This document shows, one piece after another, positions 22,132 to 34,627 of a DNA stretch of 55,142 nucleotides. The notes beneath the pieces are model-generated. The model worked only from the letters and a program-made list of their open reading frames with translations. It had not been told where the DNA came from and did not search any database. Each line of letters starts with the position of its first letter. The first letter of the stretch is position 1. The stretch lies in the IMG/VR virus record IMGVR_UViG_2711768053_000019; one strand, given 5' to 3'. The stretch is from a virus. Its lineage: Duplodnaviria > Heunggongvirae > Uroviricota > Caudoviricetes. A program made the translations under genes and the position numbers.

Positions 22132-23009
22132 AAACGCCCACCATTCCCACCCTTCTGGGGCCGGACGGCATGACATCGCTGCGCGAATATGCCGGTTATC
22201 ACGGCGGTGGCAGCGGATTTGGAGGGCAGTTGCGGTCGTGGAACCCACCGAGTGAAAGTGTGGATGCAGCCCTGTTGCCCAACTTTACCCGTGGCAATGC
22301 CCGCGCAGACGATCTGGTACGCAATAACGGCTATGCCGCCAACGCCATCCAGCTGCATCAGGATCATATCGTCGGGTCTTTTTTCCGGCTCAGTCATCGC
22401 CCAAGCTGGCGCTATCTGGGCATCGGGGAGGAAGAAGCCCGTGCCTTTTCCCGCGAGGTTGAAGCGGCATGGAAAGAGTTTGCCGAGGATGACTGCTGCT
22501 GCATTGACGTTGAGCGAAAACGCACGTTTACCATGATGATTCGGGAAGGTGTGGCCATGCACGCCTTTAACGGTGAACTGTTCGTTCAGGCCACCTGGGA
22601 TACCAGTTCGTCGCGGCTTTTCCGGACACAGTTCCGGATGGTCAGCCCGAAGCGCATCAGCAACCCGAACAATACCGGCGACAGCCGGAACTGCCGTGCC
22701 GGTGTGCAGATTAATGACAGCGGTGCGGCGCTGGGATATTACGTCAGCGAGGACGGGTATCCTGGCTGGATGCCGCAGAAATGGACATGGATACCCCGTG
22801 AGTTACCCGGCGGGCGCGCCTCGTTCATTCACGTTTTTGAACCCGTGGAGGACGGGCAGACTCGCGGTGCAAATGTGTTTTACAGCGTGATGGAGCAGAT
22901 GAAGATGCTCGACACGCTGCAGAACACGCAGCTGCAGAGCGCCATTGTGAAGGCGATTTATGTCTATCATCTCACCGTAGTTGCCCGCATCGTTCGCCAA
23001 CTCCACTGA
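22128..23009 (+). pseudogene. B: Portal protein B, 5' portion (about 281 codons of B then 12 element-derived codons and stop); interrupted by inserted element
   Basis: [31 protein letters not shown]... matches lambda B up to ...QSAIVKAIY, then diverges (VYHLTVVARIVRQLH*). Confidence 0.85.
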
Positions 23010-23086
23010 AACCCTTGCTGCGTCTGGAATGTCGTTTTCCATGCTTTTGATGACCGTTCATCACCCTTCCAGTTTTTCGCGGTTTT

Positions 23087-23140
23087 GTGTATTGCAATGT
23101 GTATTGCAAATTGGCGATCGGGATGGGTGTGTATTGCAAA
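23087..23140 (+). repeat. Three direct copies of TGTGTATTGCAA near element left end (candidate integrase arm-type sites)
   Basis: Copies at 23087-23098, 23098-23110, 23127-23140; two further copies near right end at 33754-33776. Confidence 0.4.
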
Positions 23141-23157
23141 TCTCTTGAGGGCTTTTA

Positions 23158-24399
23158 ATGGCTATTGAAAACAAACTCAGTGACAAACTGTTAAAGAGTC
23201 TTGTCGGAAAACGGCAGGACAAACAAAAAACAATAGCGGATGGGCGCGGGTTGTCTGTGCGTGTAAGCATGGTTGGGGGGATCAGCTTTGTTTTTTACTA
23301 TCGTCTTGGTGGCAGGGAATCCCCTCCGGTATGGCTTACACTTGGTCGCTATCCTGACATGTCTCTTGCAACGGCCAGGCGCATGCGTGATCAGTGCCGT
23401 GAATGGCTGGCTGAAAATCTGGACCCCCGCAGGCAAATAAAACTTGCTGCCGAAAAAACTATGCAACCAGTGACCGTAAGGGATGCGCTGTTTTACTGGT
23501 ACGACAATCACGCCACAACAGCCAGAAAAGAGCATGAATATTTAATAAAACGATTTGAAAAGCATATCTTCCCCTATATCGGTGATATGGCTATAGAACA
23601 GTGCAAATTACACACATGGCTTACCGTCTTTGACAGGATCAAAAAAAATGCGCCTGTTATGTCTGGTGCAATTTTTCTTGATATCAAACAGGCGTTGCGT
23701 TTTTGTCGCGTCAGGCAATACATCGCGTGCGATCCCTTTGGAGATATTAACGTAAGTTATGTCGGGCGCTCATCCGGTATAAGGGATCGCGTTCTTAATA
23801 TCAATGAAACCGCTGATGTATGGTCTTATGCTTACGGTAATAATTTGCTAACTCTGTCATCAATATATAACCGAAGAATAATGGTTATCTGCCTGGTGTT
23901 TGGTTGCCGACAGCAGGAGGCGAGGCTATCCACCTGGGACGAATGGGATTTAAAAAACTGGGTATGGACAGTCCCAAAAGAGCACAGCAAAAACAAGGAG
24001 GCTATAGTAAGGCCTGTTCCTGACGGAATAAAACAATGGATCGTTAATCTTTACGCAGAAACAAAAAATCGCGGTTATGTTGTCGGTTGTGCTTTGCAAA
24101 GGGCGACAATAACAGGGGCTGCAAACAGAATATGCAGGCGTCTTGGTCATGATACTAATGGCTTGTGGTGCATACATGATTTCAGGCGCACATTTTCCAC
24201 TACGCTTAATGATATGGGGGCGGATCCTTATATTGTCGAACTTCTTTTAGGTCATAAAGTGAAAGGGGTTGCTGGTGTTTACAATAAAAGCAGGCATATA
24301 AAGAAAAAACTTGAGGTGCTTAATATGTGGGTTAATTACCTTAATACGATAGCAGGATTTAACAACAACGTTATCGAGCTTAATAAAGAGGTGGTGTGA
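23158..24399 (+). CDS. int: Tyrosine integrase of the inserted element (413 aa)
   Basis: C-terminal HDFRRTFSTTL...LLGH...VYNKSR (R-H-R-Y-type catalytic pattern); N-terminal arm-binding-like domain. Confidence 0.85.
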   Translation: MAIENKLSDKLLKSLVGKRQDKQKTIADGRGLSVRVSMVGGISFVFYYRLGGRESPPVWLTLGRYPDMSLATARRMRDQCREWLAENLDPRRQIKLAAEKTMQPVTVRDALFYWYDNHATTARKEHEYLIKRFEKHIFPYIGDMAIEQCKLHTWLTVFDRIKKNAPVMSGAIFLDIKQALRFCRVRQYIACDPFGDINVSYVGRSSGIRDRVLNINETADVWSYAYGNNLLTLSSIYNRRIMVICLVFGCRQQEARLSTWDEWDLKNWVWTVPKEHSKNKEAIVRPVPDGIKQWIVNLYAETKNRGYVVGCALQRATITGAANRICRRLGHDTNGLWCIHDFRRTFSTTLNDMGADPYIVELLLGHKVKGVAGVYNKSRHIKKKLEVLNMWVNYLNTIAGFNNNVIELNKEVV

Positions 24400-24400
24400 T

Positions 24401-24658
24401 ATGGCAATTTATTCTCTTGTTGATGAAAACGATTTGCGCACAATGAAGGACATTGATCGGTTCATTCGTGAAAAAGAGTGCATAGCACTTACCACGCTGG
24501 CAAACTCAACACGCTGGAAAATGGAGCAGGCAGGTAAATTCCCGCGACGTATCAAGATCGGTGAACGTGCTGCAGGGTATCGACTTTCAGAGGTTCAGGC
24601 ATGGATCCGTGGTGAGTGGCATCCTGGATGGAAACCTGGAAAAACAAAACAGCAATAA
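24401..24658 (+). CDS. alpA: AlpA-family transcriptional regulator / excisionase-like (85 aa)
   Basis: HTH LTTLANSTRWKMEQAGKFPRRIKIGERAAGYRLSEVQAWI; directly follows int in same orientation. Confidence 0.7.
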   Translation: MAIYSLVDENDLRTMKDIDRFIREKECIALTTLANSTRWKMEQAGKFPRRIKIGERAAGYRLSEVQAWIRGEWHPGWKPGKTKQQ

Positions 24659-32745: not shown

Positions 32746-32756
32746 CGTAGTACGCT

Positions 32757-33038
32757 ATGACTGAATCCGAAATACTGCGATTAATCCGCCGTGCTTGTGG
32801 AATCAGCAAGCAGCATGACGAACAGGCCACGCAGCCGGACAGCGTGACCGCAGATAATTATGTGCGTGTAGTGGCTGAGGTGATGCGCCGTGACGGTATT
32901 GAGCTTAACGGCGTGGATATGCGCAACATACGAACAAGAGTCCTTGAGTTGCTGGCATATCGTCGCCGTTCTCAACAACGGAGGGAGAGCGCGAAAAATA
33001 CTTACCAGTGGAAGAAGCCGGAACGATTGCGGCGGTAA
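32757..33038 (+). CDS. Hypothetical protein (93 aa)
   Basis: Last ORF of element before noncoding repeat region. Confidence 0.4.
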   Translation: MTESEILRLIRRACGISKQHDEQATQPDSVTADNYVRVVAEVMRRDGIELNGVDMRNIRTRVLELLAYRRRSQQRRESAKNTYQWKKPERLRR

Positions 33039-33055
33039 CTTGCTGATATTCCCGA

Positions 33056-33440
33056 TAACGCAAAATTGCGCTGGCTGACTTGTTGCATTGCAAAAAGTTA
33101 AGCAGGAAGGCACGGCCTGTAAGATGGGATGCAGTAAGTAGTTCAAGGCTACCTTGTGCTGGCACGCACAGTTAAGCCGTCGGTGCTGGATATCCCCCAC
33201 TGGGGGAAAAGCTGGCTACATCCCTCACATCTGAGGACTGATAACGCGACATTGCGCTGGCTGGCAAAGTGCAAAATTGCACGATGGCCTAACCCATTGA
33301 TTATTTCGAAAACCTGCAATGCAGGAAATCGGGGAAGTAAGCCTAAGCTATTAATTGTTTCGAAAACCCCCATTGGGGGATGTCGGGAAAGTAAGACTAA
33401 CCCATTGATTCTTCCACAATCCTCAATTTGAGGAGGCCGG
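33056..33440 (+). repeat. Noncoding cluster of direct repeats and short palindromes at element right end
   Basis: Three units at 54-bp period each with a 13-bp palindrome (CCTGCAATGCAGG 33313-33325, CCCCCATTGGGGG 33367-33379, CCTCAATTTGAGG 33421-33433); ATAACGC.A.ATTGCGCTGGCTG duplicated at 33056 and 33241. Confidence 0.5.
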
Positions 33441-33853
33441 AACGTCTACATAGCTGCATCGCCGTAATGATGATTCAGCCCACCAGCCAAATCAGCACAG
33501 CAACGACAGAATAGCCCGACACAGAAAAACCACGAATATGGGGTTTTTGTTATGACATGGTCATGATGACCACTCATACAAAACAGGTAAAGCCCACCAG
33601 CCTGATTAAAGGTTAACCGGAAAAAAGCCAGGTATCCAATCTCGATATGGGGATCCCTATATCGACATTAACGCCCACTAAAACTGTGCATATATGCATA
33701 GAAAAAGCATCCACCAGCTTTATGACGGATGCCGCTCATCTTATAAATAATCGTGTATTGCAGTGTGTATTGCGACTCCTTTAAACGATAGGTCTGAGCA
33801 TTCGTAATGTACTGTTTTTAAATTTTATTTTTTCCTGTCTTTTCATAAAGGCG

Positions 33854-34627
33854 ATGTATGCCGCCACCATTGAGAGTGAGCTGGATACGCAGTCAGCGAT
33901 GGATTTTATTCTGGGCGCGAACAGTCAGGAGCAGCGGGAAAGGCTGACCGGCTGGATTGGTGAAATTGCCGCGTATTACGCCGCAGCGCCGGTCCGGCTG
34001 GGAGGCGCAAAAGTACCGCACCTGATGCCGGGTGACTCACTGAACCTGCAGACGGCTCAGGATACGGATAACGGCTACTCCGTGTTTGAGCAGTCACTGC
34101 TGCGGTATATCGCTGCCGGGCTGGGTGTCTCGTATGAGCAGCTTTCCCGGAATTACGCCCAGATGAGCTACTCCACGGCACGGGCCAGTGCGAACGAGTC
34201 GTGGGCGTACTTTATGGGGCGGCGAAAATTCGTCGCATCCCGTCAGGCGAGCCAGATGTTTCTGTGCTGGCTGGAAGAGGCCATCGTTCGCCGCGTGGTG
34301 ACGTTACCTTCAAAAGCGCGCTTCAGTTTTCAGGAAGCCCGCAGTGCCTGGGGGAACTGCGACTGGATAGGCTCCGGTCGTATGGCCATCGATGGTCTGA
34401 AAGAAGTTCAGGAAGCGGTGATGCTGATAGAAGCCGGACTGAGTACCTACGAGAAAGAGTGCGCAAAACGCGGTGACGACTATCAGGAAATTTTTGTCCA
34501 GCAGGTCCGTGAAACGATGGAGCGCCGTGCAGCCGGTCTTAAACCGCCCGCCTGGGCGGCTGCAGCATTTGAATCCGGGCTGCGACAATCAACAGAGGAG
34601 GAGAAGAGTGACAGCAGAGCTGCGTAA
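33854..34627 (+). pseudogene. B: Portal protein B, 3' portion (257 codons), resumes exactly at ...YAATIESELD
   Basis: MYAATIESELDTQSAMDFILGANSQEQRERLTGWIGEIAAYY... continues lambda B to its C-terminus by recall; in frame with 5' portion if element excised. Confidence 0.85.

Follow-up and report, generated by a model that had tools for sequence, protein, structure and literature searches.

The window (the whole 55,142-nt stretch of viral DNA analysed here) covers an IntD-type lambdoid prophage. It opens with the stop codon of an integrase ORF of the intD type, and on the + strand the late operon with cos, Nu1, A and W (19262-22131) leads into a lambda-type portal gene, B, and from there into a co-oriented element of 10,898 bp that interrupts B at codons 275-277. 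The size agrees with the roughly 10.9 kb given in a preliminary description of this locus, and the breakpoint was confirmed by aligning both B fragments to intact lambda B. The 5' fragment (22128-22962, + strand; codons 1-278, Pfam Phage_portal_2 profile positions 2-239) belongs to an ORF at 22128-23009 that matches lambda B up to ...SAIVKAIY, continues with 15 unrelated codons and stops at 23009. The match thus ends where the preliminary description had it, as does the ORF, but at residue 278 and not at about 281. PGAP labels the equivalent gene 'phage portal protein, incomplete, missing C-terminus'. On the far side of the element, the ATG from which B had been said to resume is indeed present at 33854, but the reading frame is already restored from 33848 (KAMYAATIESELD...) and runs to 34627 (3' fragment, 33848-34627, + strand; codons 275-533, profile positions 238-354). 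Joining 22128-22962 to 33861-34627 yields 1602 nt encoding 533 aa, the same length as lambda B. Over the 653 nt spanning the join, identity to lambda (J02459, 3358-4010) is 99.8%, and this stretch, including the intact target site (attB), was present at full length in 80 of the 50,697 phage records searched. Judging from the sequence, the insertion has split B, at 22962/33848, without supplying a replacement 3' end.

The preliminary description had placed the element between 13-bp direct repeats. The repeats are present, AAGGCGATTTATG at 22950-22962, shifted rightwards by one base from the earlier position (22949-22961), and AAGGCGATGTATG at 33848-33860, exactly as claimed, but they are identical at only 12 of 13 positions. 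In a three-way alignment, attL follows lambda only through AAGGCGAT (22950-22957) and attR only from AAGGCGAT (33848-33855) on, so the identity block, the presumed crossover region, is 8 bp long. Base nine, after the block, is T in attL and G in both attR and lambda, the T of attL being that of the element. A crossover within the 8-bp block should therefore yield wild-type ...KAMYAATIE..., rather than the ...KAIYAATIE... proposed earlier; restoration of the portal gene by excision is itself supported by the sequence. By itself, a 12/13 repeat is unremarkable in 55 kb. The significance of this one derives from its location exactly at both breakpoints of a perfectly reconstituting gene. As the junctions show, the tyrosine integrase of the element has recombined attP (...CATAAAGGCGATTTATGTC...) with the 8-bp AAGGCGAT at B codons 275-277.

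A candidate arm-type binding site, the doubled motif TGTATTGCAATGTGTATTGC, lies on the + strand of the int-proximal attP arm (23088-23107), and a second copy, TGTATTGCAGTGTGTATTGC, is located at 33754-33773 in the right arm; the two matches in the window compare with 0.01 expected by chance. The motif tgTGTATTGCantgTGTATTGCa has been reported as specific to the attP sites of helper-embedded phage-inducible chromosomal islands (HE-PICIs), with one co-oriented copy per arm (PMC10111431), and exact copies of this type are found here on both arms. The downstream copy begins at the published distance of ~132-135 bp from the centre of the core, whereas the upstream copy ends ~78 bp before the centre versus the published 81 +/- 2, although the measuring register may differ. 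The predicted attP junction of the excised form had no match in IMG/VR viral contigs or in JGI metagenome contigs, both of which results are uninformative on excision and do not refute it.

The gene content named in the preliminary description (integrase, AlpA-like regulator, replication module and packaging genes) was borne out by Pfam, and every ORF of the element is open. The main genes are all encoded on the + strand, the same as the late operon. A tyrosine integrase (23158-24399; Arm-DNA-bind_3 and Phage_integrase) is followed by an AlpA-family regulator or excisionase (24401-24658; Phage_AlpA, E = 5e-14) and, 3' of the latter, by a + strand terminator-like hairpin (24671-24689); no such hairpin was found on the + strand between the 5' fragment of B (B') and int. 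The mixed-strand 'Bro zone' (24715-26320) comprises a Bro-N protein (24715-25293, + strand; Pfam Bro-N, E = 5e-20), a YlcI/YnfO-family gene (25627-25932, - strand) and an Icd-like gene (about 26123-26320, + strand), with names taken from the PGAP annotation of a near-identical copy. No P4-type immunity RNAs (Rfam C4, isrK) were detected in this zone at E <= 0.1. The replication zone (26313-29997, + strand) contains, according to Pfam and PGAP, small ORFs, a DUF4222 gene, a D5-type primase-helicase (27225-28979; D5_N/DUF5906) and an SSB (29575-29997). Further downstream on the same strand are homologues of the lambda major capsid protein E (30194-31255; Phage_cap_E, E = 3e-41; 42% identity to helper E) and decoration protein D (31265-31606; HDPD, E = 4e-15; 38% identity to helper D), and a second AlpA-family HTH gene (31618-32001; Phage_AlpA, E = 1e-8).

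Directly downstream of the HTH gene, the element carries a cos site of its own (32026-32091, + strand), a 66-nt cosQ/cosN block that shares 63 of its 66 positions with the cos of the helper (19262-19327) and includes an exact cosN, GGGCGGCGACCT, at 32058-32069; the sequence downstream of cosN (cosB) is unlike that of the helper. The next gene (32191-32745, + strand) encodes a Nu1-type small terminase subunit (TerS) in which Pfam Phage_Nu1 matches the C-terminal half only and which is 38% identical to helper Nu1 over the full length, the C-terminal half aligning best. Kinship of this TerS to Rpp or to a solved structure was considered and rejected: no sequence relative was found in the PDB, Rpp included, and the protein is instead a full-length Nu1 homologue. 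The non-coding right arm (33040-33847, + strand) holds three tandem 54-nt units (33287-33448) in addition to the doubled motif. The structural and packaging genes are thus the E-, D- and Nu1-like ones only, and no portal, protease, large terminase, tail or lysis genes were found in the element in the ORF list, PGAP or Pfam.

The preliminary description left open whether such an arrangement had been described. It has: HE-PICIs have been reported at 14 late-gene sites (Tommasini, Mageeney and Williams, NAR Genom Bioinform 2023; PMC10111431), and the element is an HE-PICI of the published site group B:Phage_portal_2:241, so that both the arrangement and the exact site are already known. The 8-bp block is the 'aaggcgat' of B_Phage_portal_2_241, and the identity to attL and attR of Eco10269.11.B_Phage_portal_2_241 reaches over 80 nt beyond the block in either direction (PMC10111431). 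The window shares with this group the target gene, codon and attL/attR flanks, the size of the element (10,898 bp versus 10,897-10,899 bp), the doubled TGTATTGC attP motif and the co-orientation with the late operon, and we found no substantive difference between them; the four-zone gene order, Integration-Bro-Replication-Late, is that of published HE-PICIs. On the current Pfam Phage_portal_2 model, the breakpoint corresponds to profile positions 236-239 versus the published 240-243, an offset that presumably reflects an older Pfam model version in that paper. Five loci that we matched independently (CP011416, CP006834, CP015912, CP028192 and CP031134) are also in its table, and the int module is 99.8-100% identical at the nucleotide level in loci listed for the B:241 group. 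The view that a satellite has integrated site-specifically into a head gene essential to its own lambdoid helper, and that the portal is restored only upon excision, is supported by our checks and coincides with the published interpretation of HE-PICIs (PMC10111431). The window is thus one further instance of a published site, with the idea and many loci already in the literature.

We searched 5426 complete E. coli genomes with 701-bp probes spanning the two junctions. The left junction was found whole in 62 and the right junction in 59 of them. The int module was present in 65 genomes, 62 of which also carried the B junction; among full copies of the module, 62/63 had this junction. Across 62 genomes of varied hosts and countries, identity of the module is at least 99%; IS insertions or partial integrases occur in some copies. 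Neither the chromosomal site nor the immunity region is constant among the host prophages, helpers at tRNA-Arg, icd, ybhC and proP being listed in the published table (PMC10111431). On either side of the element, the late regions resemble one another from host to host. None of the complete genomes searched matched the exact helper mosaic of the window at 100%, nor did any match its right end at 100%. Strain Ch1 (NZ_CP127316) carries the two junctions at 100%, with identity of only about 96-99% over the rest of its helper, and NZ_AP022295 shares the early region at 100%, with an unrelated late region and no element. Apart from the 66-nt cos block, the element was absent from the 50,697 phage records. 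The helper late ORFs other than B are open and of lambda-like lengths, their integrity being judged by ORF length alone. The composite of helper and element spans at least 55.1 kb in the window; the lambda packaging limit is roughly 51-52 kb. Because the composite exceeds this limit and the host prophages differ in site and immunity, the distribution argues that the element has entered resident prophages repeatedly.

The founding HE-PICI, 11capE (Eco567.11.E_Phage_cap_E_80) of E. coli NRG857c, has the same architecture. The two integrases are 54% identical over their full length in a pairwise comparison, and nucleotide identity is 91% over a stretch that begins at 29393, within the hypothetical gene immediately preceding SSB, takes in the capsid, decoration and HTH genes and extends as far as cos. 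The target of 11capE is gene E, at profile codon 80, and an E copy carried by 11capE itself might act as a backup, whereas the element here interrupts B without a portal gene of its own. Downstream of cos, 11capE has HEPN and DUF262 genes and no terS, in contrast to the Nu1-type TerS gene found here. [quoted passage not shown]

More broadly, the element is a Gram-negative PICI. It has the unidirectional int-alpA pair followed by a primase replication module, a size within about 10-15 kb, the dependence on a helper implied by its missing portal, protease, large terminase, tail and lysis genes, and the helper-type cos. One published feature, a chromosomal att site never occupied by a prophage (Fillol-Salom et al. 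2018), is lacking, as att lies inside a prophage gene; such an att site is what marks HE-PICIs as a PICI sub-kind. EcCICFT073, the model Gram-negative cos-type PICI (Fillol-Salom et al., ISME J 2018; Mol Cell 2019), shares with the element int-alpA, primase, lambda capsid and decoration homologues and a lambda-like cos, and is induced and packaged by lambdoid helpers, lambda included. Its mobilisation by lambda and phi80 occurs via cos and requires int and alpA, and deletion of the capsid and decoration homologues left transfer and interference unchanged (PMC6092414). However, EcCICFT073 occupies a chromosomal site apart from its helper and redirects packaging by Rpp binding phage TerS, whereas the element here resides within its helper and has its own Nu1-type TerS. 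Membership in the capsid-forming PICIs (cf-PICIs) was rejected: these encode a full set of head proteins (portal, protease, major capsid protein, adaptors, TerS and TerL), whereas the element has only capsid, decoration and TerS homologues and lacks portal, protease and TerL. As a gene interrupted without a replacement end, B resembles cases of regulated gene integrity or 'active lysogeny', such as sigK with skin in B. subtilis and comK with phi10403S in Listeria, where developmentally timed excision restores the gene. Those elements interrupt a gene of the host cell, however, whereas this one interrupts a gene of its own helper, presumably to the benefit of the satellite.

We consider it highly probable that the element is a functional HE-PICI of the B:241 group in which excision is coupled to restoration of B and packaging proceeds via its own cos. 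Following SOS induction, the Q-antiterminated late transcript of the helper would run through Nu1-A-W-B' into int and alpA. Co-orientation with the late operon and the lack of a + strand terminator-like hairpin between B' and int were counted for this late-transcript coupling. Int and AlpA would then excise a 10.9-kb circle, regenerating wild-type B and leaving attB again as ...GTGAAGGCGATGTATGCC.... Since both partners need a portal and the satellite has none, the portal would be made only once the satellite has left. By homology, the circle would replicate with its own primase-helicase and SSB and be packaged from its own cos, the Nu1-like TerS redirecting the large terminase of the helper, gpA; heads would be built with the portal and protease of the helper, perhaps incorporating E- and D-like shell proteins from the satellite, and joined to helper tails. 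The exact cosN, the 63/66 cos block and the Nu1, E and D homologues were counted for the packaging part.

Alternatively, the integration may have been site-specific but the composite now inert, within a prophage that lost function through the insertion and is decaying along with it, without any excision-coupled restoration. The sole composite tested experimentally, that of 11capE, gave no plaques or particles, and many helpers look truncated according to the authors (PMC10111431); the copies with IS insertions or partial integrases and the absence of the attP junction from the public contig collections searched point the same way. We nevertheless regard such a dead end as unlikely, given that all ORFs of the element and all late ORFs of the helper in the window are open, with lambda-like lengths, that the int module is so well conserved across 62 genomes, that the presence of the element in different helpers at several chromosomal sites needs repeated active integration, and that the sister element 11capE does excise precisely upon induction (PMC10111431). 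It is very improbable that the composite moves as one unit, with the helper packaged and spread by co-transfer with the satellite embedded rather than by fresh integration. This mode was left possible by the same authors (PMC10111431), and the similar late regions flanking the element in different hosts would fit it, but the composite is too long for a lambda head, no portal protein would be available while the satellite is in place, the element was in none of the phage records, and the helpers differ in immunity region and site. The preliminary description also raised the possibility of an assembly artefact. In a reading of this kind, the 11-kb segment would be mis-joined into B and the 13-mers coincidental. 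A 12/13 match alone is indeed not rare in 55 kb, but the repeat sits exactly at both breakpoints, B rejoins to a full-length, lambda-like gene, and the junctions are whole in 62 and 59 independently finished genomes, while 80 phage records have the intact join; an artefact or chance repeat is thereby refuted and its probability negligible.

Under the preferred reading of a functional, excision-coupled HE-PICI, the location of a satellite within an essential late gene of its helper makes excision a cis-acting gate on helper morphogenesis, and regulated gene integrity would here serve a parasite of a parasite. More tentatively, the B:241 subgroup might be more self-constrained than 11capE: excision may gate packaging of the satellite itself as well as of the helper, a satellite-specific, possibly smaller shell may be built on the restored portal, and TerS may steer gpA off the helper cos. 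The basis of this reading is the lack of an own portal copy, the Nu1-type TerS with its diverged N-terminal half, the private cosB and the own E- and D-like proteins. The window highlights the Nu1-type TerS and own cosB of portal-site elements, both of which are missing from 11capE. Finally, phage lambda itself has the exact attB, which would make a clean lambda-based experimental system possible.

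The portal gene B of the lambda-like helper prophage is split by an element of 10,898 bp (one core copy counted). The open reading frame at 22128-23009 follows lambda B to ...SAIVKAIY and then runs into unrelated sequence, as the preliminary description had stated, stopping after 15 such codons; the terminal Y, however, is residue 278 rather than about codon 281. The 3' part of B resumes beyond the element, as had also been noted, being in frame from 33848 (KAMYAATIESELD...) to its end at 34627. When 22128-22962 and 33861-34627 are joined, they yield 1602 nt encoding 533 aa, as many as in lambda B. 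Alignment of the fragments to intact lambda B confirmed the breakpoint: over the 653 nt spanning the join, identity to lambda (J02459, 3358-4010) is 99.8%, and 80 phage records contain this stretch in full.

The 13-bp direct repeats reported earlier do flank both junctions, as AAGGCGATTTATG on the attL (left) side and AAGGCGATGTATG on the attR (right) side (33848-33860), but the left copy has to be shifted one base rightward, to 22950-22962, and the true identity is shorter. In an alignment of lambda B, attL and attR, attL follows lambda as far as the end of AAGGCGAT, whereas attR follows it from AAGGCGAT on. The lone mismatch within the 13-mer is a T in attL and a G in both attR and lambda; because the attL T is element sequence, the identity block is 8 bp. 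The split of B and integration at AAGGCGAT can be read directly from the sequence. The expected recombination products are attB (the intact B site), GTGAAGGCGATGTATGCC, and attP (the junction of the excised circle), CATAAAGGCGATTTATGTC, and excision should restore wild-type ...KAMYAATIE... rather than the ...KAIYAATIE... proposed initially. As a practical point, lambda itself contains a perfect attB, at codons 275-277 of B.

The suggested search of other genomes for the element was carried out with 701-bp junction probes against 5426 complete E. coli genomes, and the left and right junctions were recovered whole in 62 and 59 of them, respectively. Recovery of both junctions in so many complete genomes rules out an assembly artefact, which the preliminary description had raised as an alternative. 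An int-proximal segment of 1.4 kb was detected in 65 of these genomes, full-length in 63; compared with the junction counts, this means that the int module almost never occurs apart from the B junction. The whole element (≥80% coverage) is present in 53 genomes. It was absent from all 50,697 phage records searched, and collections of viral and metagenome contigs gave no match to the attP junction. In NZ_CP166879.1 (locus positions 28052-39680), the same B site is occupied by a variant with a 97.9% identical int module, in which a RepA-family helicase replaces the D5-type primase and a PerC-family regulator is added; this variant illustrates how modules are exchanged while int/att stays constant.

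The reading of the element as a satellite residing in the B gene of its own helper is supported, and both the arrangement and its precise site, as well as many of these loci, have been published before, so that our observation is a rediscovery. Tommasini, Mageeney and Williams (bioRxiv 10.1101/2022.07.18.500453; NAR Genom Bioinform 2023, 5:lqad036; PMC10111431) described 491 helper-embedded PICIs (HE-PICIs), which occupy 14 sites within the counterparts of lambda late genes A, B, C, E, V, T, H, L and J, always in the orientation of the late gene. For their site B:Phage_portal_2:241, the listed identity block 'aaggcgat' is that of the window site, attL and attR as given in Supplementary Files 3 and 4 (e.g. 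Eco10269.11) are identical to the window to the left and right of each junction, and element sizes are 10,897-10,899 bp (PMC10111431). Loci that we had matched independently also appear in the published table: those of E. coli CFSAN029787 (CP011416, 3698288-3709185) and APEC O2-211 (CP006834), together with CP015912, CP028192 and CP031134. HE-PICI integrases form one clade, with a clade-specific doubled motif, tgTGTATTGCantgTGTATTGCa, in both attP arms (PMC10111431); the motif occurs exactly twice in the window (23088-23107 and 33754-33773), versus 0.01 expected by chance. The founding HE-PICI, 11capE, interrupts gene E of an icd-integrated prophage of E. coli NRG857c (PMC10111431). Its integrase is 54% identical to that of the element studied here, and its nucleotide sequence is 91% identical to 29393-32090, a stretch that starts inside the hypothetical gene immediately preceding SSB and closes with the cos block. 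Past cos, gene content is not shared: 11capE carries HEPN and DUF262 genes without terS, and the window element a Nu1-type terS. What is new beyond the published work is confined to packaging details of the elements at the portal site.

Pfam and PGAP bear out the integrase, AlpA, replication and packaging genes originally assigned to the element. Integration genes encode a tyrosine integrase (Arm-DNA-bind_3 and Phage_integrase domains) and AlpA; they are followed by a Bro zone with a Bro-N protein, a YlcI/YnfO gene on the opposite strand and an Icd-like gene, and by a replication module with a DUF4222 gene, a D5_N/DUF5906 primase-helicase and SSB. A Phage_cap_E protein and an HDPD protein share 42% and 38% identity with helper E and D, respectively. 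Genes for portal, protease/scaffold, large terminase, tail and lysis functions were not found within the element. A second AlpA-family HTH gene (31618-32001, + strand), directly upstream of the element cos and inside the stretch 91% identical to 11capE, may regulate late or packaging genes rather than excision. Rfam gave no hits in the Bro zone. A 356-aa GTG ORF across this zone (25250-26320, + strand) overlaps the YlcI/YnfO and Icd-like genes; it is uncalled by PGAP in near-identical copies and is probably spurious.

The element cos block (32026-32091, 66 nt) equals the helper cos (19262-19327) at 63/66 positions and contains the exact lambda cosN, GGGCGGCGACCT; immediately downstream of the block the two sequences part. 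In lambda, cosB lies immediately downstream of the cosN block, and the N-terminal part of Nu1 binds cosB while the C-terminal part contacts gpA. The element TerS is 38% identical to helper Nu1, best in the C-terminal half, the only part matched by the Pfam Nu1 profile; a sequence search found no PDB relatives. The composite prophage (helper plus embedded satellite) holds two co-oriented exact cosN, at 19294-19305 and 32058-32069, 12,764 bp apart. In a concatemer, the satellite cos and the helper cos that follows it would be separated by about 42-45 kb, a packageable length, so aberrant packaging products are conceivable should excision fail. The 0.8-kb non-coding right arm of the element includes three tandem 54-nt units (33287-33448), each with a short palindrome (CCTGCAATGCAGG, CCCCCATTGGGGG and CCTCAATTTGAGG), and a 24-nt direct repeat (33054-33077 and 33240-33263, 186 bp apart). 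These repeats look like iterons or protein-binding arrays; the sections consulted in the HE-PICI paper make no mention of them (PMC10111431).

The + strand shows no terminator-like hairpin in the interval from B', the 5' piece of B, to int; the first one (24671-24689) follows alpA. After induction, the antiterminated late transcript of the helper would run through Nu1-A-W-B' into int and alpA, and Int and AlpA would recombine attL with attR, releasing the circle and restoring B. The helper portal, which the satellite also lacks, would be produced only once excision is done. Homology suggests that the excised circle would replicate by its own primase-helicase and SSB, and that satellite TerS with helper gpA would package from the satellite cos into heads built with helper portal and protease, possibly with the satellite E- and D-like proteins, to which helper tails would be attached. 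For the sister element 11capE, this order of events has experimental support: upon mitomycin C treatment its composite excises and then replicates, and precise excision of the satellite follows at 2-3 h, restoring 42-98% of sites, although plaques and particles were not recoverable (PMC10111431). For the related EcCICFT073, the model Gram-negative cos-type PICI, transfer requires int and alpA, lambda and phi80 serve as cos helpers, and deletion of its homologues of the capsid and decoration proteins produced no detectable change (PMC6092414).

The left edge of the window coincides with the stop codon of an intD-type integrase ORF (1-1164, - strand) and its right edge with the start codon of a recombinase-family ORF (54552-55142, - strand), so that the window was evidently cut at gene boundaries around the prophage; as a whole, it had no match at 100% among the complete E. 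coli genomes in the collection. The composite measures at least 55.1 kb. The head of lambda, whose classical att region is ybhC, accommodates at most roughly 51-52 kb, which makes travel of the composite as one unit unlikely. Helpers with the same insertion differ among strains: both Ch1 and SCU-106 have argU/IntD prophages, the former with an S24 repressor and ydaT, the latter with a lambda-like cIII-kil-ral-sieB-cI-cII region, and the helper of strain 48 adjoins dsdA/csc, has torI and a HipA/XRE region and hosts an element variant with RepA helicase and PerC instead of primase. Further helpers at icd, ybhC and proP are listed in the published table (PMC10111431). The simplest reading is that the element entered resident prophages repeatedly.

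In the helper, the integrase is followed by a lambdoid early region, a Q-type antiterminator, lysis genes and the late region, which comprises, in order, cos (cosN at 19294), Nu1, A, W, split B, C, D, E, FI, FII, Z through J, lom, tail fibre and tfa; all late ORFs besides B are open and of lambda-like length. The nin region contains a 660-aa ORF (9827-11809, + strand) that is annotated as a SIR2 family protein in NZ_AP022295.1, which matches this stretch at 100%; it is a candidate for an anti-phage defence function borne by the helper. Between the tail-fibre gene and tfa lies a 300-aa ORF (52968-53870, + strand) annotated as macro domain-containing in 99.6%-identical copies, an unusual passenger for a tail-fibre module.
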